Assembly: GCA_963792585.1 (NCBI GenBank)
Contig: CAWBWI010000004.1
Span: 64,554-128,553, forward strand
Reading direction: 5' to 3'
Length of the DNA stretch: 64,000 nucleotides
Source: Candidatus Eiseniibacteriota bacterium
GTDB lineage: Bacteria > Eisenbacteria > RBG-16-71-46 > CAIMUX01 > VGJL01
In this document: positions 4,847 through 20,877 of the stretch, one piece after another
Numbering within the stretch: the stretch's first letter is position 1
Layout of the letters: each line of letters begins with the position of its first letter
The notes under the pieces: generated by a model
What the model saw: the letters and a program-made list of their open reading frames with translations, nothing else
The model's database searches: none
What the model was told of the DNA's origin: nothing
Translations under genes and position numbers: made by a program

Positions 4847-5767
4847 CTACGCCTGGAGCAGTCCCCGAATGGGGACCTCAGGCTGGTTGCCGATCATCGG
4901 AATCTCGTCGAATCCCCCGGGGATCGCGGTGTCCTCCGGGTCCGGTGTGAGGCTCTCCATCCAGTTCTTCGCGAGAAGCTCGATGCAGCGGGCGGCGGCC
5001 GATCCCGGGCACGAGCGAAGGAGTGGCTCTTGCTTGCGGACCGCCGTGGAAACGGTCGCATCGTCGAGGACCCACCCCAGGAAACGTGGCTCGATCGTGA
5101 GGAAGCGACGGGCGGTCTCGCGGATCCGCTCGGCTGTCAGTCTCGCCTCGCGGGCGCTCTCCGCGTGGTTGACGACGATCCAGGGCTGCGCGGCGAGCTT
5201 CTTCGAAGCGAGAACCCGGAAACAGGCATAGGCATCGGTGAGCGCCGTCGGCTCCGGGGTCGTCACGATGAGGATGTCGTCGGCGGCGCGGGCCAGGTGG
5301 AGGGTCGTGCGGTGGATGCCGGGGGCCGTGTCGAACAGGATCAGGTCCATGCCTTCCTCGACTTCGCTCACGCTTTGCAGCAGACGCTCGCAGCGGAGGT
5401 CGTCGAGGTCGGCCATCTCGGGGACGCCGGAAGCTCCCGGCAGCAGATTGATCCCGTCCGGAGTGCGAACCAGGACCTCTTGCGCCGTACGCTCCCCCAA
5501 GACGATGTCGTAGAGGGTGTGCCGCGGGATCATCCCGAGGTGCAGATCGAGATCCGCCATCCCCAGGTCGCCGTCGACCACCAGGACCTTCTGGCCCCGC
5601 CTGTGAAGAGCGATCGCCAGGTTCGCGACGATCGTCGTCTTGCCGACCCCACCCTTCCCGCTCACGACCGCAAGGCTGCGTGAGCGCGGACGGCTCGACC
5701 GGATACGTTCGCTCCCCTTCGCTCGGATGACCCGGAACCCCGCGGTGCGGTCGTTCTGCTTTGCCAT
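4847..5767 (-). CDS. flhG: MinD/ParA-family ATPase, FlhG (YlxH)-like
   Basis: ORF 4847..5845 trimmed to the ATG at 5767 (GGAGG upstream). Deviant Walker A SGKGGVGKTT. It sits directly upstream of fliA, as in flhF-flhG-fliA loci, but no flhF is adjacent. Confidence 0.8.
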   Translation of the reverse strand: MAKQNDRTAGFRVIRAKGSERIRSSRPRSRSLAVVSGKGGVGKTTIVANLAIALHRRGQKVLVVDGDLGMADLDLHLGMIPRHTLYDIVLGERTAQEVLVRTPDGINLLPGASGVPEMADLDDLRCERLLQSVSEVEEGMDLILFDTAPGIHRTTLHLARAADDILIVTTPEPTALTDAYACFRVLASKKLAAQPWIVVNHAESAREARLTAERIRETARRFLTIEPRFLGWVLDDATVSTAVRKQEPLLRSCPGSAAARCIELLAKNWMESLTPDPEDTAIPGGFDEIPMIGNQPEVPIRGLLQA

Positions 5768-5825
5768 TTGCCTCCCCCTCGATCGGCCTGCGACGGGTTG
5801 CCGTCGCGGCCAGGCCAGGGGGAAA

Positions 5826-5841
5826 TGCAATCGGCATGCCC
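5826..5841 (-). promoter_or_regulatory. candidate sigma54 (-24/-12) promoter for flhG-fliA
   Basis: The minus strand reads GGGCATGCCGATTGCA, i.e. GG-N10-GC with a TTGCA -12 element, ~60 nt upstream of the flhG ATG. An AT-richer tract lies at 5861-5910, and an NtrC-family activator gene is immediately upstream. Confidence 0.45.
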
Positions 5842-6251
5842 GCAAAAAGCGCGGGGCGGAGAATTGTGGATGTTTCGTATCCCCCTATGTAGAAGTTCTT
5901 TATGGAGGACACCTCGTGTGCGACAGGAAGACCCCACGGCGCCGCCGCCGGCCCACCGATCAGGTGCTGACCACCGCTGGTAAGAAATCAACCGGCCCCT
6001 GGGGAATCTCCACAGGTTTCCCGCAGGTTTCCGGGGCTGGGCAGAACAGGGTCGGGCCCATGAATGGTCCCTGACGATGGACAGGAAGATCGAGCTCTCG
6101 GGGTCGGCCACGACGGTGCGGGACCGTTCGATCGAGTCGCATGCGGTTCAGCCAGCCTATGAAGGGTGAGGTCTGGAAGGGTGCCGGTCTCGGGATCGGC
6201 ACGGGTCTCCGTTTCGGTGCCGGGTTCGGCGCCGGCGACTCTTCGGAGTGT

Positions 6252-6299
6252 GCGTTGGCGTCAGCGTCAGCGTCGGCGTCTACGTCTGCGTCCGCGTCA
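6252..6299. repeat. hexanucleotide tandem repeat (GCGTCN) x7-8
   Basis: GCGTCA GCGTCA GCGTCG GCGTCT ACGTCT GCGTCC GCGTCA at 6258-6299, preceded by a degenerate GCGTTG. It lies ~25 nt downstream of the ntrC-like stop, in the 555-nt gap before flhG. Confidence 0.85.
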
Positions 6300-6322
6300 G
6301 TGCCTGCGCGCCGGCCCGCAGC

Positions 6323-7729
6323 TCAGTCCGCGCCTTCCTCCTTCATCTTGGCGCGTAGGGTCTGACGGCTGATCCCCAGCGCCTCAGCGGCCTTGGTCTT
6401 GTTCCCGCCCACCCGCTCGAGGGTGTGTAGGATCGCGGCCCGCTCGATCTCCTCGAGTGTGGGCAGGCGATCGTCGCCGGGGCTGAGCCCCGCCGCCTCA
6501 CGCCCTCCGCGCGACGCCGTTGGGCCTGAAACCACGTGGGGCGGGAGATGCTCCGGGAGGACCTCCTCCCCGGCGGTCATCAGGACGAGTCGTTCCATCA
6601 GATTCCGCAACTCGCGGACGTTCCCCGGCCAGGAATAGCCGATCAGGAGTTCCATCGCCCTCCGGGAGACTCGCCGCACGCCCCTCCCGAGCTCTCGCGA
6701 GAACTGATCCAGGAAGTGCTGCGCGAGAACCGGGACGTCTTCGGGTCGATCGCGCAGCGGCGGCACCAGGACCGGAATCACGTCGAGGCGATAGTAGAGG
6801 TCTTCACGGAATCGGCCCGACTCGACTTCTGCGAGGAGGTCCTTGTTGGTGGCGGCGATCAGACGAACCTGCACCCGCACGTCGACCGTCGACCCCAGCT
6901 TGCGAAACGACTTGGTCTCGAGCACGCGCAGGAGCTTCGCCTGCATCGAGAGGGGCATTTCTCCGATCTCATCGAGAAAGAGGCTCCCACGATCGGCCAG
7001 CTCGAAGAGACCGCGCTTGCTGGAACGCGCGTCCGTGAACGCCCCCTTCTCGTACCCGAAGAGCTCCGACTCGACGAGGTTCTCCGGCACGGCGCTCACG
7101 TTGAAGTCGACGAAGGGACCCGCCGCGACGGGACTCATGGTGTGGATCTGCCGGGCGATGAGCTCCTTGCCGACCCCCGTTTCCCCACGGATCAGGACCG
7201 TCGAGGTCGGCGAGGCCGCCGCCCTCCGCACATGCTCGAGCAGCGCCTGCGTCGGCGGACTCGGCCCGAAACGCACACTCGTGCTGAAGACCTTTTCCTG
7301 CTGCTTGCGCAAGACCTCGACTTCCCTCCGCAACCGGGAGGTCGAGAGCGCGGATGCGATCAAGAGCTTCAACTGATTCACGTCGAGAGGCTTCGTGATG
7401 TACTGGAAGCACCCCAGCTTGGTCGCCTCGACCGCCGACTCGATTCTTCCATAGGCGGTCATCATGATCGTCACGACGTCCGGATGCCGTTTCCGGATTT
7501 CGCGAAGCACCTCGATCCCGTCCTCGCCGGACTCCTTGAGCTTTTGGTCGAGAAGGACCAGGTCGATGACCTCGGACGCAAGGGCGGCGAGAGCGTCGTC
7601 CCCGTTCGCCGCGGTCAGCACAATCGTGGAGTCATCGGAGAGCGCCGCGGCGAGGGATACGCGGATCGACTCCTCGTCATCCACGATGAGCAGACGGTGC
7701 TCCATTTCAGGGATCTCTACGTCGCTCAC
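6323..7729 (-). CDS. sigma54-dependent response regulator (NtrC/FleR family)
   Basis: 468 aa. Receiver (LLIVDDEESIR), AAA+ sigma54-interaction domain (GETGVGKELIA, ESELFGYEKGAFTDA, WPGNVRELRN) and a C-terminal Fis-type HTH (NKTKAAEALGISRQTLRAKM). Confidence 0.92.
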   Translation of the reverse strand: MSDVEIPEMEHRLLIVDDEESIRVSLAAALSDDSTIVLTAANGDDALAALASEVIDLVLLDQKLKESGEDGIEVLREIRKRHPDVVTIMMTAYGRIESAVEATKLGCFQYITKPLDVNQLKLLIASALSTSRLRREVEVLRKQQEKVFSTSVRFGPSPPTQALLEHVRRAAASPTSTVLIRGETGVGKELIARQIHTMSPVAAGPFVDFNVSAVPENLVESELFGYEKGAFTDARSSKRGLFELADRGSLFLDEIGEMPLSMQAKLLRVLETKSFRKLGSTVDVRVQVRLIAATNKDLLAEVESGRFREDLYYRLDVIPVLVPPLRDRPEDVPVLAQHFLDQFSRELGRGVRRVSRRAMELLIGYSWPGNVRELRNLMERLVLMTAGEEVLPEHLPPHVVSGPTASRGGREAAGLSPGDDRLPTLEEIERAAILHTLERVGGNKTKAAEALGISRQTLRAKMKEEGAD

Positions 7730-9263
7730 CGTGTCTCCTCTCGACAGGGAGGTCGATCAGTACCGTCGTGCCCTTGCTCTCGATCGAGCGGACGGAGATG
7801 AACCCCCCATGTTCCTTGATGATCGACTGGGTGATCGAAAGGCCGAGTCCGGTTCCCTTCGTTCGGGTGGTGAAGAACGGGTCGAAGATCCTGGGAAGGG
7901 TGTCCTTCGCGATGCCACGTCCGGTGTCTCCCACCCGGATCTGGACGTAGCGCATCATCGGCGCCTGACGCTCGATCCGTATCCGGTCGGACCGGCGCTG
8001 CCCGGTGCCGCGCCGGACATGCGGCCTGCGACGGATCACGGAACACTCCAGCGCGAGCCGTCCCCCCGAAGGCATCGCCTCGGCGGCATTGCGGATGACG
8101 TTGAGCAGGACCTGTGTGATCTGCTCGGGATCGATGTAGATTCGCGGGATCCGGCCCCGGAGCTTCGTCTCATGGGAAATCCCGCGTTCCCTCAGTGCCT
8201 CTTCCTCGAGCTCCGCGACATGGCGAAGGATCTCGATGACGTCGCTTTCGCGCAGTTGCGGCCGGCTCGGCCGGGCGAAGGAGAGCAGGCTGTCGACAAT
8301 CCGGTTCAGGCGCGCAGCCTCCTCCAGGATGATCTGGACGAATCGCAGTTTTGGATCGTCTGCGGGGATCCGATCGCGAAGCACTTGAGCGCAGTTGCCG
8401 ATGCCCGTCAGGGGATTGCGGATCTCGTGGGCGACCCCGGCGGAGAGTTCGCCGATCGATGCGAGCCGCTCTCTGCGTCGCATCTCGTCCTCGAAGGCGC
8501 GCTCCTCGGATGTATCGCGGATGAGCACCAGCATCCCCTTGGGAACCTCTCCGCCCCGTGCGGCCAACCGGATCATCTGCAACCAGACCGGCTTCTCCCT
8601 GCCGTGTCGGTCGGCGATATAGAGTTCGAGCTTCGTCGCTTTTCCCCGGAAGCCCAGATCGATCGGATTCTCCTCCACACCCGCCGGCCGGAAGACCTTC
8701 AGGCAATCGACGCCGACCGCCTCGTCGTTCCGATACCCGAGGATCTCCTCCGCAGGCGGGCTCAAGTAGGCGACCCGACCAAGCCGATCCAGCGCCATCA
8801 CCCCCAGCGGCAACCCGGGAAGCAGCGCGTCGTGGAACCGTCGCAAGAGCGCGAGCCCGTGGTCGGCTGCATCGGAGCGGATCCGAAGTTCGAGGAACTC
8901 GACGAGCTCCCCGAGATCCGGCTCCGATATCTTCCAGATCGCGGAGCGCGGAGAAGCCTGAAGGAAGAGCACCCCCGGCCGCCGTCCGGCCGCGTCCAGG
9001 GGCATGAGAACCAGATCCCGCGCGCCGGCGCCGTTCGGGAGCAGCCCGCGTGCGTTCCAGAACCGAGCATCGCCGGGGCGGTCAGGGGATCCCAACAACG
9101 GCGCGAAGGCCGCGGGGTCGAACCCGGCGGGGGGCCAACTGGGGTCGGCGACCAGCAAGACAGGGCGCGCCCCTCCCTCGCGGAGCGCGTAGAGCCCGAA
9201 CCGCGTGCGACCGAGGAGTCGACGAAGGATACGAGGGATTGCCACCATTCCGCGGCGCGACAC
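7707..9263 (-). CDS. sensor histidine kinase (GAF/PAS-HisKA-HATPase)
   Basis: 518 aa. PAS-like region, H-box HEIRNPLTGI, and ATPase boxes NVIRNAAEAM, DTGRGI and GTGLGLSITQ. It overlaps the downstream regulator start by 23 nt. Confidence 0.9.
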   Translation of the reverse strand: MSRRGMVAIPRILRRLLGRTRFGLYALREGGARPVLLVADPSWPPAGFDPAAFAPLLGSPDRPGDARFWNARGLLPNGAGARDLVLMPLDAAGRRPGVLFLQASPRSAIWKISEPDLGELVEFLELRIRSDAADHGLALLRRFHDALLPGLPLGVMALDRLGRVAYLSPPAEEILGYRNDEAVGVDCLKVFRPAGVEENPIDLGFRGKATKLELYIADRHGREKPVWLQMIRLAARGGEVPKGMLVLIRDTSEERAFEDEMRRRERLASIGELSAGVAHEIRNPLTGIGNCAQVLRDRIPADDPKLRFVQIILEEAARLNRIVDSLLSFARPSRPQLRESDVIEILRHVAELEEEALRERGISHETKLRGRIPRIYIDPEQITQVLLNVIRNAAEAMPSGGRLALECSVIRRRPHVRRGTGQRRSDRIRIERQAPMMRYVQIRVGDTGRGIAKDTLPRIFDPFFTTRTKGTGLGLSITQSIIKEHGGFISVRSIESKGTTVLIDLPVERRHGERRRDP

Positions 9264-9284
9264 TAGCGCGCGGAAGGTGCCGTC

Positions 9285-9977
9285 TCAAGGCCTTTCGATG
9301 GAGAGGACTTTTGCGAGATCGCCCGTTCCACGCCCCCCCTGCAAGTGGAGGCGGTGCTGGCGGACCAGGTAGCGGAGGAGCGCCTGCCGGGTTCCCTCGC
9401 CGATCGCCTCGAACGAGAGGGCCACCCGTCGCGGTTCCTCATCCTGAACACGGACCACCCGGGAGCTCAGACGCACCACCTCGCCTGCGGGGCCGATCGG
9501 GAGGGCGAGGCCCACCGTTTGTGCCTGCTCGAGATACTCCTCGGGATCGAAGACCAGGATTCCGTTGCCGGAGAGGTTGCAGGCTCGCAGCACGACGATT
9601 TCACCGTCGTGCCCTTCCCTCTCGAGCCGGACGCCCAGCCGCACGGGCATGCGAAAGAAGTGCCGCTGCTGCTTGCGTTGCGCCGGGCCGGCGCCCAGAA
9701 GAAGCCTGCAGGAGCCGTCGGGCTCGGTGCCCTCCACGGTCACGTTGTAGAGGAAGAGCCCAAATGGGCGGGCTGCGCGGAGCATGTGGGGGTCTCCCGT
9801 GTTCCAGACCGGGGCGACCCCGGCGCCCGCGAGCGGCTCGACCCGCACGCTTCGGCCGCTGCGCGTGACGACGCGAACCCGGCAGCGCGCACTGCCACGG
9901 GCGTCCTCGAGTGTCACGACGGCACCGGGTCCCAGAATCCTCGCCTTCGGCAGCGGCGACGTGGCTCCGCGATTCAT
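9285..9977 (-). CDS. PilZ-domain c-di-GMP receptor, YcgR-like (PilZN + PilZ)
   Basis: RxxxR (QRHFFR) and D/NxSxxG (NLSGNG) motifs in the C-terminal half, with a beta-rich N-terminal half. The ATG at 9977 overlaps the upstream TGA by 1 nt. Confidence 0.8.
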   Translation of the reverse strand: MNRGATSPLPKARILGPGAVVTLEDARGSARCRVRVVTRSGRSVRVEPLAGAGVAPVWNTGDPHMLRAARPFGLFLYNVTVEGTEPDGSCRLLLGAGPAQRKQQRHFFRMPVRLGVRLEREGHDGEIVVLRACNLSGNGILVFDPEEYLEQAQTVGLALPIGPAGEVVRLSSRVVRVQDEEPRRVALSFEAIGEGTRQALLRYLVRQHRLHLQGGRGTGDLAKVLSIERP

Positions 9978-10387
9978 CAAGCTCCTCCGCGACCCATTCC
10001 GTTGTCGGGGTCAAGATCGTCCGCCAAGATCCGCCGAACGATTTCCTCGAGCACCTCCGGGCGCTCGTAATAGCCCATCCGGATCCGCCGCCGCGCCTCC
10101 CGGATCTTTGCCGGTCGGACATCGGGGAGAATGCGGAATTCCTCACGAATGAGTTCCATGGCGCGAGCGGTCCGCGCGTCCTTCTTCTGGGGTCTCCCTC
10201 CGTTGGATCCGTCGCGCTTGGATTGGGTTGGAGGCGAGGCTCCCGCCTCCCGGTCTCCCGACTCCAATCGGGCCCTCGCGCGGAGGAAGACGTCATAGGG
10301 CACGACGTTGCCGGTCGTGGCCTTGCCGTTCGGCGCGCCTTCGCTTCCGGGATCAATCCGGTTCAAGATTCCCCTTCTGCGTCGCAC
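9977..10387 (-). CDS. putative anti-sigma28 factor, FlgM-like (weak)
   Basis: Only the C-terminal ~45 aa are informative: VRPAKIREARRRIRMGYYERPEVLEEIVRRIL resembles the FlgM sigma-binding helices. The N-terminus is low-complexity, the start is uncertain (GTG 10387), and an alternative ORF overlaps it at 10353-10544. Confidence 0.4.
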   Translation of the reverse strand: MRRRRGILNRIDPGSEGAPNGKATTGNVVPYDVFLRARARLESGDREAGASPPTQSKRDGSNGGRPQKKDARTARAMELIREEFRILPDVRPAKIREARRRIRMGYYERPEVLEEIVRRILADDLDPDNGMGRGGA

Positions 10388-10626
10388 GAATGCTCGGTCG
10401 GTCCGACGAACGGGGTGAAGGAAACCTGCGGCCGACCGACAGATCGTCGGCGAGCGCGTCGAACGAGGCTTCGAGCCTTCGCTCCAGATCGCGCAGCGAC
10501 CGACCGGCCGGTCGACCCGATTTCGGTTTTCGCCCTGGATTCATCGGTAGCAGCCTCCAATTGCTTGATCGGCTGGCCCGCGCTCCGGCTTGATCGGGAA
10601 TCCGGGGAGTCGGTGGGCGCCGACCG

Positions 10627-16049: not shown

Positions 16050-17141
16050 CTACTCCCGATCCGTCAGTCGATCGGCTTCACGGTACTGCGCCTTCGCTTG
16101 CTCGTAGAGGCCCTTCTTGTCCATCGCGATGCCGAGGTTGAAGTGCGCCTCGCCGTTGGTCGGCTCGATCTCACAGAGTCGGGTCAACACCTCGACCGCA
16201 TGATCGGGCATGTCGCTCTTGTTAAAAGCCATGCCCAGGTAACGAAGGACCTTGGGGCTGTCGGGGAACTGCTCACGGCAGTGCTGCAGATAGCGGATCG
16301 CGGTATCGTAGGTCCCCTTCTTGAAGTAGAGAACGCCGAGCGAGTACTGGATCTCCCAGTTCTGGGGATCGAGCGCCTGCGCGCGGCGCAGCGCCGCCTC
16401 CGCTTCGGCCGGACGCTCGTCGAGGTAGATGAGGCCGAGATTGAAATGGGCCATGGAGTAGTTCGGATCGAGTTCAATCGCCCGCCGGAACTCCTCGATC
16501 GCCTCACGCTTTCGGCCCGATTCAGCGTAGGCCGCGCCGAGATTGCAGTGGCTCTCGACGCTCGTCGGGTCCATCTCGATCGCCTTCTGGAACGCGAGGA
16601 TCGCCTTCTGCCGGTCCCCGTTGCGATCGTGGACGTACCCGATGTTGATCTGTGCCTTGGTCATTCGGGGGCTCGTGCGAACGCACGTCTCGAAGGCCAC
16701 GATCGCCTCGTCGTCCCGATGCGCCTTCATCAGGGTGACCCCGAGTCGATAGCGGTACTCCGGTTCGCTGGGATCGAGGGAGATTGCCTGCTCGTGGTCC
16801 TCGCGCGCCTGTTCGAAGTCCCCGAGGTCCTCGCACATCCTGCCGCGGAGCGACCAGTACTCGGCGCGGTCGTTGTTCCCCTGCGCGTGGCCGTCGAGCA
16901 ACTCGCAGCCGTGCTCGGCATTCCCGGCGCGGCGGTAGGCCTCCGCGCACCGCTGGAGGATCTCCCAGTCGTCTTCACCGCCCAAGAGCCGCGTCTCGAG
17001 GAGCGTTGCGGCCGATTCCGCGCGATTGGATTCGAGATAGAGATCGACGAGCTGGCGCAGCAGATCCCGATCGCCCGCGCGCGAGCGCAGGCGCCGTTCC
17101 AGTTCTTCCGTCCGTCTCTGGTTTCTGTCGTCCGAAGGCAT
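16050..17141 (-). CDS. TPR-repeat protein
   Basis: 363 aa of tandem 34-aa TPR-like units (A..Y.....G....A...F..AI..DP pattern repeated about 9 times). Confidence 0.8.
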   Translation of the reverse strand: MPSDDRNQRRTEELERRLRSRAGDRDLLRQLVDLYLESNRAESAATLLETRLLGGEDDWEILQRCAEAYRRAGNAEHGCELLDGHAQGNNDRAEYWSLRGRMCEDLGDFEQAREDHEQAISLDPSEPEYRYRLGVTLMKAHRDDEAIVAFETCVRTSPRMTKAQINIGYVHDRNGDRQKAILAFQKAIEMDPTSVESHCNLGAAYAESGRKREAIEEFRRAIELDPNYSMAHFNLGLIYLDERPAEAEAALRRAQALDPQNWEIQYSLGVLYFKKGTYDTAIRYLQHCREQFPDSPKVLRYLGMAFNKSDMPDHAVEVLTRLCEIEPTNGEAHFNLGIAMDKKGLYEQAKAQYREADRLTDRE

Positions 17142-17227
17142 CCGTTCCCCAAGGCGACGTGGGATATTGCCGCCTTGGGCCGCAATCTACGGACCGATAG
17201 GAGCCCCCGTCAAGGAGATCCGGCCGC

Positions 17228-18595
17228 CTAGGCGGCCAAACGTTCCCCCTCCGGCTCCTCTCCGGAGGACTCGTTGGAGCGCCGCACGCAGATCCGGAGC
17301 TTCAGGACGACGCCGCGCTCGAGATCGTCGGGCTCGAGATCGACCAGGATCGGGACCTCGCGCCAGCGGGGTTCCGAACACGCCGCATCCGTGGGCACGG
17401 GCGCCTGCACGGACGGATAGGCGGTGGCGCCTTCCGGCCGGATCGACGGTTCCGGCGTCGTCGGGCGCGTCACGGTCTCGCGATTGACATCCATCTCGAC
17501 CGTGAACTCGGATTCGTCCGCGTCCCGCGCCCGGCCGAACCAGCGGCGGAGCCTACCTCCCACTCCCTGCCGGCGATCGAGCTCGTCCGGCATTCCATCG
17601 ACGGCATCGGCGGGTGAGCCTTCGGTCGGCGGGCGATCGAACGAGTGTTCGCTATTCTCCACGACGAGTTCGATCTCCTCCCGCGGGGAGGGCTCTTCAG
17701 CGGCGGGGGGAATTGTCTGGTCCGCGACCAGCGGTTCCGCGGGCTCCACACGCTCCCGCGGCGGCGGGGGCGCGACAGGCTCGAGTCGCAGCGGCACAAT
17801 CGTCCTCGGAGTTTCCTCCGGCGCCGGGTCCCTCAGGAGCGATGGCGACGGCACGACGGGCTGCCGGACGGGAAGCGGGTGCGGTGCGAGCGCGATCGTC
17901 GGTGGCGGCGGCGCGGCGATCGGGATCGGCGGCGGCGCTTCCGCTGCCGCAGGTGGGTGCGCTTCGGCGACCGCGGGCGGGCTCGACGGAGACGCAACAA
18001 CGCGTACGCCGATCTCGTGGGCGAGGTGCTTCAGCAGCATTCGCGACATCGCCTTGAACGTCTCGAACACTCCGACCCCCGTCGTCCCGACCGCCTCGAA
18101 AGAGGGGACTTTTCCCGGGTTCAGGGTTCGCTCGAGCTCCTCGATCGAGTAGACATCCGGTAGGTCGCGCTTGTTGTACTGAATGACCCATGGCATCTTG
18201 TCGAGGTCGATTCCGTGCTCCCGCAGGTTCTCCCGCAGGTTCTGGAGACTCTCGATGTTCTCGTCCATCTTGCCGCGCTTGGAGTCGGCGACGAAGACGA
18301 TCGCATCGACCCCTTTGAGCACCAGCTTGCGGGTGGCGTTGTAGTAGACCTGCCCGGGAACGGTGTAGAGCAGGAACCGGGTCTTGAAGCCGGAGAGTTC
18401 GCCGAGATCGATCGGCAGGAAGTCGAAGAAGAGCGTCCGCTCCGTCTTCGTCTTCATCGAGACCATCTTGCCGCGGTTGGTCTGCGGGATCGCCCCGTAG
18501 ATGAACTCGAGGTTCGTCGTCTTCCCCGAGAGCCCCGGACCGTAGTAGACGAGCTTCGCGTTGATCTCGCGGCCGGAGTAACTGATGAGGACCAT
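17228..18595 (-). CDS. MglA-family small GTPase with a long Pro/Ala-rich C-terminal extension
   Basis: ORF trimmed to the ATG at 18595 (GGAGG upstream). The first ~195 aa are collinear with MglA (INAKLVYYGPGLSGKTTNL, LYTVPGQVYY, IQYNKRDL). They are followed by ~260 aa of PPAVAEAHPPAAAEAPPPIPIAAPPPP-type linker and an acidic/basic tail. Confidence 0.85.
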   Translation of the reverse strand: MVLISYSGREINAKLVYYGPGLSGKTTNLEFIYGAIPQTNRGKMVSMKTKTERTLFFDFLPIDLGELSGFKTRFLLYTVPGQVYYNATRKLVLKGVDAIVFVADSKRGKMDENIESLQNLRENLREHGIDLDKMPWVIQYNKRDLPDVYSIEELERTLNPGKVPSFEAVGTTGVGVFETFKAMSRMLLKHLAHEIGVRVVASPSSPPAVAEAHPPAAAEAPPPIPIAAPPPPTIALAPHPLPVRQPVVPSPSLLRDPAPEETPRTIVPLRLEPVAPPPPRERVEPAEPLVADQTIPPAAEEPSPREEIELVVENSEHSFDRPPTEGSPADAVDGMPDELDRRQGVGGRLRRWFGRARDADESEFTVEMDVNRETVTRPTTPEPSIRPEGATAYPSVQAPVPTDAACSEPRWREVPILVDLEPDDLERGVVLKLRICVRRSNESSGEEPEGERLAA

Positions 18596-18777
18596 GGCGC
18601 CTCCTGCAAGGGTGTGTGTCCCGCGGGGTTCCGATACTCCCCGCCATCTTCTTATCGGTCCCCTGAGCCCGCAGCTTGATTGCGCAGGCATGACCCGCAT
18701 CCTGAACGCCGGCGCAAGCCGGCGATCAGGATCGGATTGAGGCCCTATTTATTTGCCAGATTGTCTGTTATGCCCGA

Positions 18778-20877
18778 TCAGGCGATCTCGAAGAGCCGGA
18801 TCCCGTCGGGGTGGCGCCGCTCGATCGCCTTCCACAGGCGGGCATGATCGGGCCGGGCAAGGTCGGGGTCTTCCCGCAGCATCGTCTCGGCCGCACCCCG
18901 CGCAACCCGGAGCAGGTCGGCGTCCCGCACGAGATCGGCGACCTTCATCCTCGGCATTCCGGCCTGCCGGGTCCCGAAAAGCTCTCCGGGGCCGCGCAGG
19001 CGGAGGTCCTCTTCCGCGATCCGGAATCCGTTGGACTCACGGACCAGGACCCGCAGCCGCTCGAAGGTCTCCCCTCCTGTGCCCTCCGGCTTCATGAGGA
19101 AGCAATAGGGCGCCTCACCCGGCGCGCGGCCGATCCTCCCCCGGAGCTGGTGGAGCTGCGAAAGACCGAAGCGCTCGGGATGCTCCACGACGAGCACCGT
19201 CGCGCGCGGAAGATCGATGCCGACCTCGATCACCGTCGTCGCGACCAGTGCCCGCAGGCTCCCCGCACGCAGTCCGGCCATCACCCGTTCGCGCTCCGCG
19301 GGGTCCGTCCTGCCCGTGAGCAGAGAGACCTCGAGGCCCCGGAACGCCGGATGCGCCGCGATCTCGCCGCGCATCCGCGTCGCATCCCGAAGGTCGAGCG
19401 CCTCCGATTCCTCGACGAGTGGATAGACGAAGAACGCCTGTTGTCCGGAGCGGAGGCGATCGGCGACGAAGGCGAGCAGCTCGTCCCATCGCGAGCGATC
19501 GATGAGCTTCGTGACCACGCCCGTTCTGCCGGGCGGCATCTCATCGATCGTGGTGATGTCGAGGTCGCCGTAGTAGGCCAGCGCGAGCGTCCGCGGGATC
19601 GGGGTCGCGCTCATCACGAGGGTGTGGGGACGGGGCCCCTTCTCGCGCAGTCGCAGCCGTTGCATCACCCCGAAACGGTGTTGCTCGTCGACGACGATCA
19701 GCCCGACGGCGCGCGGCTGGACCTTCTCCTCGATCAACGCGTGCGTGCCGACCAGTAGATCGATCGCCCCGCCCTCGAGCGCCGCGAAGACACGGCGGCG
19801 TTCCGCGGCCGGCGTTCGACCGATCAACAGGGCGACCCGGACTCCGCCGGGCGCGAGCATCTTCTCCAGCGTCTCGGCGTGCTGCAGGGCCAGGACCTCG
19901 GTCGGCGCCATGAAGCAGGCCTGGCTCCCCGCGCCCGCCGCCCACGCGCATGCGAGCGCGGCGACGACCGTCTTGCCCGAGCCGACGTCGCCCTGCAGCA
20001 GCCGCATCGCGGGTCGGGCCGAGCGTAGATCGGTGAGGATCGTCGCGAGCGCCCGCTCCTGCGCGCCGGTCAACGTGTAGCCGAGACTCGCGCGCACGCG
20101 GTCGAGACGCGCGGGGTCTCCTTCGAGCGGGCAACCGTCCTCGGTGCGCGCCCGACGCTCGCGAAGGCGCAGGAGGAGAAGCTGGAACATCAGCAGCTCC
20201 TCGAGGGCGAGACGGCGACGCGCCGCCTCCGCCTCCTCGACCGCCTCGGGCAGATGGAGCGCGCGCAGCGCTTCCCGCCGATCGGGCAGGTCGAGGGACG
20301 CGACCAGGGATTCGGGGAGAGGATCGTCGAGTGCCGGCGGAAGGCTCTCGAGCGCGCCGTGGACGAGCGAGCGGAGCAGTTTCTGCGAGATTCCCGCCGT
20401 GAGAGGGTAGACGGGAACGATGCGTCCTCCAGTCAGAATGGGCCGATCGTCATCCGGATCGAGAACCTCGAACTCGGGGTTCGCGAGCTGCAGATCACGC
20501 CCGACCCGGATGCGCCCGCTCGCGAGGATCCGGCAGCCGGGCCGCAGGAGTTTTGCGACATAGGGCTGGTTGTACCAGACCGCCTCGAGGCGGCCGGAGC
20601 CGTCATCGAGCCGGGCGACCGTATCCCTTCGCCCGCCCCGGCCCCGGTGGACGTCGGCCCGGACGACGTTGGCCGCCACGGTCACGACCATGTCCGCCCG
20701 CGCCGTTCCCAGCGGGGTGAGCTTGGTCCGGTCCAGGTAGGCCGCGGGAAGGTGGAAGAGCAGGTCTCCGACCGTCCGGATTCCGAGTTTCTCGAGCAGC
20801 ACGGCGCGTCGGGGGCCGGCCCCCTTGAGGAACTGAACGCTCTGGCTGTCCCAGGAGGCCTCGAATCTTGCGCTCAT
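18778..20877 (-). CDS. recG: ATP-dependent DNA helicase RecG
   Basis: 699 aa. Wedge/OB N-terminus, helicase motifs [27 protein letters not shown] and QLRGRIGR. Confidence 0.93.

Follow-up and report, generated by a model that had tools for sequence, protein, structure and literature searches.

MglA is the model for a Ras-like front-rear polarity switch in bacteria, and to our knowledge all mechanistic work on it rests on the MglA/MglB pair, in which MglB is the classical off-switch. In silico analysis of a window of 64,000 nucleotides (nt) from a Candidatus Eiseniibacteriota bacterium (assembly GCA_963792585.1, contig CAWBWI010000004.1, positions 64,554 to 128,553 of the forward strand) revealed a gene in which an MglA GTPase domain (G domain) is followed by a long C-terminal tail. 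The gene is a single open reading frame at 17228-18595 on the minus strand, encodes 455 amino acids (aa), and is referred to below as tailed MglA. It belongs to a large, monophyletic and so far undescribed paralogous branch of group-1 MglA; this family assignment, together with the conservation of the family, is regarded as nearly certain. The first-pass annotation of the window had already read the frame as an MglA domain with an extension, which holds, whereas the strand has been corrected here to minus.

The closest described systems are the following. Like tailed MglA, SofG of Myxococcus xanthus is an additional MglA paralogue whose sequence extends outside the G domain and whose gene lies apart from mglB; MglB gives it no stimulation and its activator is unknown (PMC4316618). 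The genome of Bdellovibrio bacteriovorus lacks MglB, and its MglA has the tetratricopeptide repeat (TPR) protein Bd2492 as a partner (PMC3983030). This MglA is short, its Ser21 is predicted to lock the GTP form, and bd2492 is located in the tamAB operon, not adjacent to mglA (PMC3983030). A further TPR protein, SgmX of M. xanthus, is a partner of MglA-GTP (PMC7519303, PMC7668184). The census of prokaryotic small GTPases (Wuichet & Sogaard-Andersen 2014) left out sequences longer than 240 aa (PMC4316618), and tailed MglA, with 455 aa, lies outside its single-domain range of 150-240 aa. A full-text literature search found no paper connecting MglA to Eisenbacteria, Latescibacterota or Krumholzibacteriota.

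The G domain occupies residues 1-195 (18011..18595, minus strand). Over residues 2-191 the alignment is gapless both with M. xanthus MglA (5ymx/6h17, E 3e-77) and with Thermus thermophilus MglA (3t12, E 2e-73), bearing out the collinearity with Myxococcus MglA and the P-loop, PGQ and NKRD motifs that had been read from the sequence at first. All motifs are present: the P-loop GPGLSGKTT (G19-T26, with G21), the Arg finger R53, T78-V-P-G-Q82 with T78 in G3, and N141-K-R-D144. Across 110 tailed homologues G19, G24, K25, T26, R53, T78, Q82 and NKRD are invariant, and G21 is conserved in at least 90%. A Foldseek search with the full-length model returned MglA structures as the top matches (TM, template modelling score, 0.63-0.66), and the G domain is 62-65% identical to the MglAs of Myxococcota and Desulfuromonadota. 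The family databases are less specific, with weak Arf and Gtr1/RagA matches only in Pfam and a sub-threshold ObgE match only in NCBIfam (E 0.009). In its sequence the G domain thus has the marks of group-1 MglA, namely closest similarity to MglA, the TxxG threonine, the Arg finger, the glutamine and NKxD. Because the full MglA catalytic set is kept, the domain should cycle between GTP and GDP. In comparison with the M. xanthus and T. thermophilus proteins (5ymx, 6h17, 6izw, 3t12), tailed MglA is collinear over 190 residues and shares the P-loop, R53, Thr78, Gln82 and NKRD, whereas it differs in the 260-residue tail, in 19 divergent fixed positions, in its separate clade and in having no mglB neighbour. 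It resembles the Bdellovibrio system in the lack of MglB and the link to a TPR protein, but it keeps Gly21 and its TPR gene is adjacent. Since Gly21, Arg53 and Gln82 are conserved, tailed MglA is not of the Ser21, presumably GTP-locked, Bdellovibrio type.

The separate position of the family follows from a maximum-likelihood tree of 93 G domains, in which a single branch (Shimodaira-Hasegawa-like approximate likelihood ratio test, SH-aLRT, 89) has 47 of 47 tailed sequences on the same side. The tailed clade lies inside group-1 MglA and is distinct from the short MglAs that the same genomes encode next to mglB, so that the extended form defines an MglA branch of its own. The extension of SofG, which we take to be N-terminal as given in the first-pass annotation, contrasts with the C-terminal one of tailed MglA; tailed MglA has no N-terminal extension, and the Myxococcota paralogues are placed outside the tailed clade, on long branches of the same tree. 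Nineteen positions are fixed differently in tailed and canonical MglA, and these cluster in the N-terminal strand, switch I (41, 45, 47, 48), beta-3 (H75L) and switch II/alpha-2 (84, 86, 88, 92). The substitutions in switch I, beta-3 and switch II/alpha-2, which are partner-binding surfaces, suggest a different set of partners. Among species-representative genomes the long forms have been found in Candidatus Eisenbacteria, Latescibacterota, Krumholzibacteriota and other metagenome-assembled genomes, while Gemmatimonadota, Myxococcota and Desulfuromonadota possess the 192-197-aa form. Within the phylum, about 56 of the 61 sampled genomes encode a tailed form.

The tail comprises 260 aa (19% Pro, 12% Glu and 11% Ala) and ends in VPILVDLEPDDLERGVVLKLRICVRR. 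It is a genuine part of the protein: the best-matching homologue, which comes from a different assembly, covers 100% of the length at 84% identity, and 19 full-length orthologues have two conserved islands in the tail as well as the terminal Ala-Ala. A read-through artefact is rejected because full-length orthologues occur in independent assemblies. A search of the protein collection gave at least 8000 matches of 250-796 aa. The original description of the tail as a linker, an acidic stretch and a basic tail agrees with its composition and end, but the tail is more structured than that, with three recognisable modules, and a conserved amphipathic helix had been overlooked.

Directly behind the G domain lies a disordered spacer rich in proline and alanine (residues 196-342, 26% Pro; 17570..18010, minus strand), delimited by AlphaFold2 and the alignment. 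AlphaFold2 gives it no secondary structure, with mean confidence of 41-62 per 10-residue block, and its length and sequence vary among orthologues. It is followed by the first conserved island, a basic-aromatic amphipathic helix predicted from alignment and AlphaFold2, QGVGGRLRRWFGRARD (residues 343-358; 17522..17569, minus strand). In the 19 full-length orthologues its consensus is VGxRLRRWFxRxR with L349 invariant, and AlphaFold2 predicts helix at residues 346-352. The hydrophobic moment of the helix, 0.72, is the maximum of the tail, and in the homologue rows printed the motif usually coincides with the tail window of highest hydrophobic moment. A regular expression detected the basic-aromatic motif in 79 of 110 homologues, including the variants RLRRW[FL], GFWGRLFGR, GLWRWFR and KLARLFG; it is located 108 residues from the C-terminus here, with a family median of 140. 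In these features the predicted helix (GRLRRWFGR, or GFWGRLFGR in relatives) resembles the short basic-aromatic amphipathic helices of MinD and FtsA, of which the MinD C-terminus presumably reads GFLKRLFGG, whereas in tailed MglA it is internal, with disordered sequence on either side and a distinct conserved element further on. Helices of the MinD/FtsA type are not known to bind the membrane unless two or more act together.

A second disordered spacer (residues 359-409; 17369..17521, minus strand), without predicted secondary structure and variable among orthologues, leads to the second conserved island. This is a C-terminal strand-helix-strand element of 29 residues, RWREVPILVDLEPDDLERGVVLKLRICVR (residues 410-438; 17282..17368, minus strand), recognised by its conservation and by AlphaFold2. 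The 19 full-length orthologues share REVPILVDLEPEDLERGVVLKLRIxVR, and nearly all of the 120 best long homologues end in the element, with the consensus R-E-I-x-V-P-x-x-L-x-P-E-D-L-x-x-G-x-V-L-x-L. The predicted local distance difference test score (pLDDT) is 76-90 at residues 411-440 in the full-length model, and 84-90 for the element as delimited above; folding residues 380-455 alone, as the first-pass annotation had suggested, raised it to 91-98 at residues 410-439. This isolated model contains a short helix (PDDLER) between two extended segments that are not paired with each other, a pattern typical of segments which complete their sheet with another chain. No significant match to the element was found among PDB sequences (best E 0.13, unrelated), in Pfam or by Foldseek (0 hits). 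Its reading as an AbrB/SpoVT-like (PF04014, AbrB/MazE) or PilZ-like module was likewise unsupported by PDB sequences, Foldseek and Pfam, where 53 members gave chance matches only at E<=10, and a shared targeting peptide is rejected, as the element is present on no other protein of the genome. The protein closes with an acidic tail (residues 439-455; 17231..17281, minus strand) ending in LAA-COOH, which was delimited by the recurrence of the terminal Ala-Ala in homologues. Among the best 120 homologues, a terminal xAA (RAA, EAA, YAA, KVA, ASA) after an acidic stretch recurs in most of those of Eisenbacteria type; such an end was not found in the Latescibacterota and Krumholzibacteriota forms.

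The lack of MglB noted in the first-pass annotation extends from the neighbourhood to the genome, as no Roadblock/LC7 gene was found within 10 kb or in the 5.4-Mb assembly (best E 0.2 with Pfam Robl_LC7). A custom MglB hidden Markov model (HMM), for which 71 MglB sequences and the two seeds were used (72 rows at build), gave nothing at E<=10 against the six-frame translation of the genome, while the same model recovers Eisenbacteria MglBs at E 1e-24 to 1e-36. The genome contains a single MglA-like gene. The genes that flank mglBA in two relatives (L085, L086) are adjacent here (contig C1, ~1,234,098 and 1,234,106), with no room for an operon, and because these syntenic genes are contiguous the absence of mglBA is real and not an assembly gap. 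A ~180-aa gene between tailed mglA and the TPR gene of some relatives was considered as a hidden MglB and rejected, as its product carries a signal peptide and matches nothing in Pfam, and the genome studied has no homologue of it.

Among relatives the situation is different. In canonical loci mglB lies directly upstream of mglA in 71 of 74 cases, versus 0 of 6 tailed loci with mglB within 8 kb. The genomes of six relatives possess exactly one Roadblock gene each, which by the custom HMM is mglB (E 1e-24 to 1e-60) and has a second mglA, a short one, immediately behind it. Over the phylum a Roadblock gene is present in 42 of 61 genomes and, wherever checked, within ~0.5 kb of short mglA. Because relatives carry this separate mglB and a second short mglA, tailed MglA is a paralogue that normally coexists with the canonical mglBA pair. 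The description of an MglB-less form is therefore correct for the genome studied, but most relatives keep mglB elsewhere; where present, that mglB is operonic with short MglA, whether or not it also acts on the tailed protein. Similarly, the proposal of a different polarity module stands as regards a distinct module, but it concerns a paralogue and not an MglB-less replacement. Fourteen of the 61 genomes have the tailed form only and no Roadblock gene: the genome studied, a 99%-complete genome of the same family, three of the four genomes of family f3, and all those sampled from families f6 and f7. The fourth f3 genome (G066) also lacks a Roadblock gene but has a divergent second MglA-like match. 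Gene content shows the tailed family to be independent of MglB in several lineages. Viewed across genomes, the interval at C1 ~1,233,300-1,234,800 and its counterparts in L085 and L086 form a clean presence/absence polymorphism of the canonical polarity module.

The candidate partner of tailed MglA is a TPR protein of 363 aa (TPR363; 16050..17141, minus strand), whose gene starts 86 nt downstream of tailed mglA. Pfam TPR repeats extend throughout the protein, which is assigned to the cytoplasm; inspection of its N-terminus by eye gave no signal peptide. Orthologues with 33-38% identity are encoded downstream on the same strand in L006, L007, L008, L025 and L062, and also in L091-L093, and a TPR orthologue is found just downstream in 8 of the 9 loci fetched. 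In a genome search that scored 33 candidates per genome, 27 genomes had both the tailed form and a TPR orthologue (E<=1e-35), which lay 1-2.6 kb downstream in 25; in the two exceptions it is on another contig of a fragmented assembly. The co-occurrence across genomes that the first-pass annotation had proposed to examine thus exists, although it is not obligate (G047, G058, G001). The 86-nt gap that separates the stop of tailed mglA from the TPR start contains a sigma-70-like promoter match, TTGACG-N18-TAGATT (17184-17213, minus strand), and nothing resembling a terminator was found between the genes.

We consider it most likely, with moderate confidence, that tailed MglA anchors itself and serves, together with the TPR protein, as a polarity switch independent of MglB; the anchor model in the form given here is offered more tentatively. 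The tail would constitute a built-in anchor, in which the amphipathic helix binds the inner membrane weakly, in the manner of MinD and FtsA. The C-terminal element could pair with that of a second copy or dock on a partner, adding avidity and fixing the site. The proline-rich spacer would act as a leash allowing the G domain to search a radius of tens of nanometres for effectors, of which the TPR protein is the most likely one, unless it is a regulator. GTP would be hydrolysed through intrinsic activity or with an activator other than MglB, as for SofG. The switch probably acts on type IV pili or some other polar machine and not on the flagellum.

A stronger version of this reading, which we find doubtful, describes a self-contained Ras-like switch with its own tether (the helix plus the pairing or docking element), controlled by the TPR protein instead of MglB- or RomR-type partners and by a non-Roadblock activator, so that lineages without mglBA would run polarity or pilus placement on a two-gene module. 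If true, bacteria would have their own counterpart of the eukaryotic Ras and Rho proteins, which combine a hypervariable region with an anchor. By analogy, tailed MglA shares with Ras/Rho the succession of a small G domain, a flexible and poorly conserved linker and a basic, putatively membrane-binding end; in contrast to them it has no lipid-modification signal, its linker is ten times longer, and the tails are not homologous.

Several points weigh against the self-anchored switch. Membrane binding, dimerisation and TPR binding are each inferred from sequence and models. Whereas MinD and FtsA carry their helices at the terminus, the amphipathic helix of tailed MglA is placed internally, some 100 residues before the C-terminus, and a few short members of the family lack it. 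In the full-length AlphaFold2 model, calculated from a 110-row alignment, the G domain is poor (pLDDT 41-55 for residues 1-70), so that contacts between tail and G domain are unreadable from it. The TPR gene is kept without tailed MglA in G047 (as TPR-uppP) and in G058, and in G001 the two genes are unlinked. Synteny extends to recG and uppP as well, so that the TPR adjacency could in part be a matter of inherited gene order. The assembly studied is rated 84% complete. Finally, PilM is universal in the sampled genomes, and its co-occurrence with tailed MglA carries no information about the output.

The adjacency of the two genes also permits a reading in which the C-terminal element is a docking peptide for the TPR protein and does not self-associate, the TPR scaffold being what leashes the GTPase. 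TPR domains are known to bind extended peptides and C-terminal tails (Hop, CHIP, class II type III chaperones), two extended segments of the element are amphipathic and lack an intramolecular partner, and the TPR orthologue is directly downstream in 25 of 27 genomes. This reading is nevertheless unlikely, given that the TPR gene persists in G047 and G058 without any tailed MglA, and that ~30 genomes with tailed MglA yielded no TPR orthologue at E<=1e-35, a weak negative in view of the 33 candidates scored per genome.

Alternatively, the tail may be a regulator in cis, its C-terminal element or acidic end folding onto the switch regions and assuming the activating, exchange or inhibitory roles of MglB. 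This would suit the 14 of 61 genomes in which the tailed form is the sole MglA and MglB is missing, the clade-specific A48K in switch I, which faces the acidic tail, and the unusually low confidence that the full-length model assigns to the P-loop and switch regions. The tail, however, predates the loss of MglB and coexists with mglBA in most genomes, and the acidic end is missing in Latescibacterota and Krumholzibacteriota members. Moreover, the confidence of the element is higher when it is folded alone (91-98) than in the full-length protein (84-90) and is accordingly independent of the G domain. Regulation in cis is, on balance, quite improbable.

The terminal Ala-Ala raises the question of a ClpXP-type degradation tag (LAA-COOH, 17231-17239), with the level of the protein, and not an activator, limiting the switch. 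The ssrA tag ends in LAA, the protein studied ends in ERLAA, and most Eisenbacteria-type homologues end in xAA after the acidic stretch. Many members, however, end in VA, SA, GT or II, the tag is not present in Latescibacterota and Krumholzibacteriota, and the support consists in likeness of sequence; we regard such a tag as very unlikely. Least probable is usual regulation by a normal MglB that is too divergent or lies in an unassembled part of the genome: although the assembly is 84% complete, most relatives carry mglB and some MglB matches of family f5 are near the Pfam cut-off, the syntenic mglBA site is contiguous and empty, the 99%-complete same-family genome, all sampled f6 and f7 and three of four f3 genomes also lack both genes, and the custom HMM found nothing at E<=10 here versus 1e-24 to 1e-36 for Eisenbacteria MglBs.

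As to the output of the proposed self-anchored switch, the distribution of motility genes is informative for one of the two machines. The export gate gene FlhA is present in 23 of 61 genomes, versus ~56 with tailed MglA, and PilM in 61 of 61. Because tailed MglA is retained in ~35 genomes that lack FlhA, the sister genome G027 among them, it is not tied to flagella. Type IV pili are a candidate output by analogy with the M. xanthus proteins MglA and SofG and with Bdellovibrio MglA. The genome studied has FlhA and PilB/PilT-type ATPases. Its flhA (C3:883027-884992) is split by a frameshift over two overlapping frames, covering profile positions 1-404 and 393-655, which reflects either an assembly error or a pseudogene.

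The family is of interest as a large phylum-wide MglA branch that fell outside the reference census by its length and that persists as the only MglA in genomes without MglB. It offers a natural system for the question of how an MglA is localised and switched off without a Roadblock activator, the same question that SofG poses, for the replacement of partner-based recruitment by a disordered tether and a weak membrane helix, and for TPR proteins as general partners of MglA. Its members are candidates for structural and cell-biological study. The locus described here adds the synteny evidence for mglBA absence, the paralogue relation to the canonical pair, the phylum-wide counts, the fold of the isolated fragment and a flagellar profile that argues against a flagellum-specific role. 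Of practical value is the annotation, as tailed mglA genes are currently labelled "hypothetical", "MglA" or "SRP receptor beta".

The reading frame of tailed mglA remains open as far as an ATG at 18700, which would give a protein of 490 aa. This longer reading is rejected and the start at 18595 taken as correct, because every N-terminus in the 19-sequence alignment of orthologues is MVL(I/V)SYSG, a GGAGG ribosome-binding site lies 7 nt 5' of ATG 18595, and a promoter-like motif falls within the would-be N-terminal extension. That motif is sigma-28-like, TCAAG-N15-CCGATA(A), TCAAGCTGCGGGCTCAGGGGACCGATA(A) (18653..18679, minus strand), about 58 nt before the start codon. It is the sole match in the window, where 0.02 are expected, and one of 6 genome-wide; in L092 and L093 similar GCCGATAT boxes are located upstream of the tailed mglA orthologues. 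The remaining five matches in the genome stand before genes for sensors or regulators and not before recognisable flagellar genes, and membership in a flagellar sigma-28 regulon is rejected on this ground as well as on that of the ~35 genomes which keep tailed MglA without FlhA. A structured RNA leader was considered and rejected, since the fold of the 50-nt leader is no better than that of shuffled sequences (z 0.19).

The first-pass annotation took the TPR gene for the sole co-directional neighbour, but recG (18778-20877, upstream) and, downstream of the TPR gene, trpA and uppP also share the strand. Further upstream of recG are a gene for another TPR protein, of 542 aa, and the dcw cluster with its ftsZ end. 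In L116 (G058:C1:144000-158000) the order recG, MJ0042-type Zn-ribbon, TPR, trpA and uppP is intact over 4965-10481 without tailed mglA. The same Zn-ribbon gene also follows recG in L091-L093; it was considered as a GltJ-like MglA binder and set aside, being absent from the genome studied. Some relatives have a signal-peptide protein gene between tailed mglA and the TPR gene. In the Krumholzibacteriota-type loci L025 and L062 (~9170-9560) a stand-alone receiver (CheY-like) gene comes right after tailed mglA, and the gene of a small protein with a signal peptide separates it from the TPR gene. Upstream of a Latescibacterota tailed mglA, TTTGGCACGCTACTTGCGCG (L007, ~7830-7850) resembles a sigma-54 -24/-12 promoter; if so, different phyla would use different alternative sigma factors for tailed mglA.

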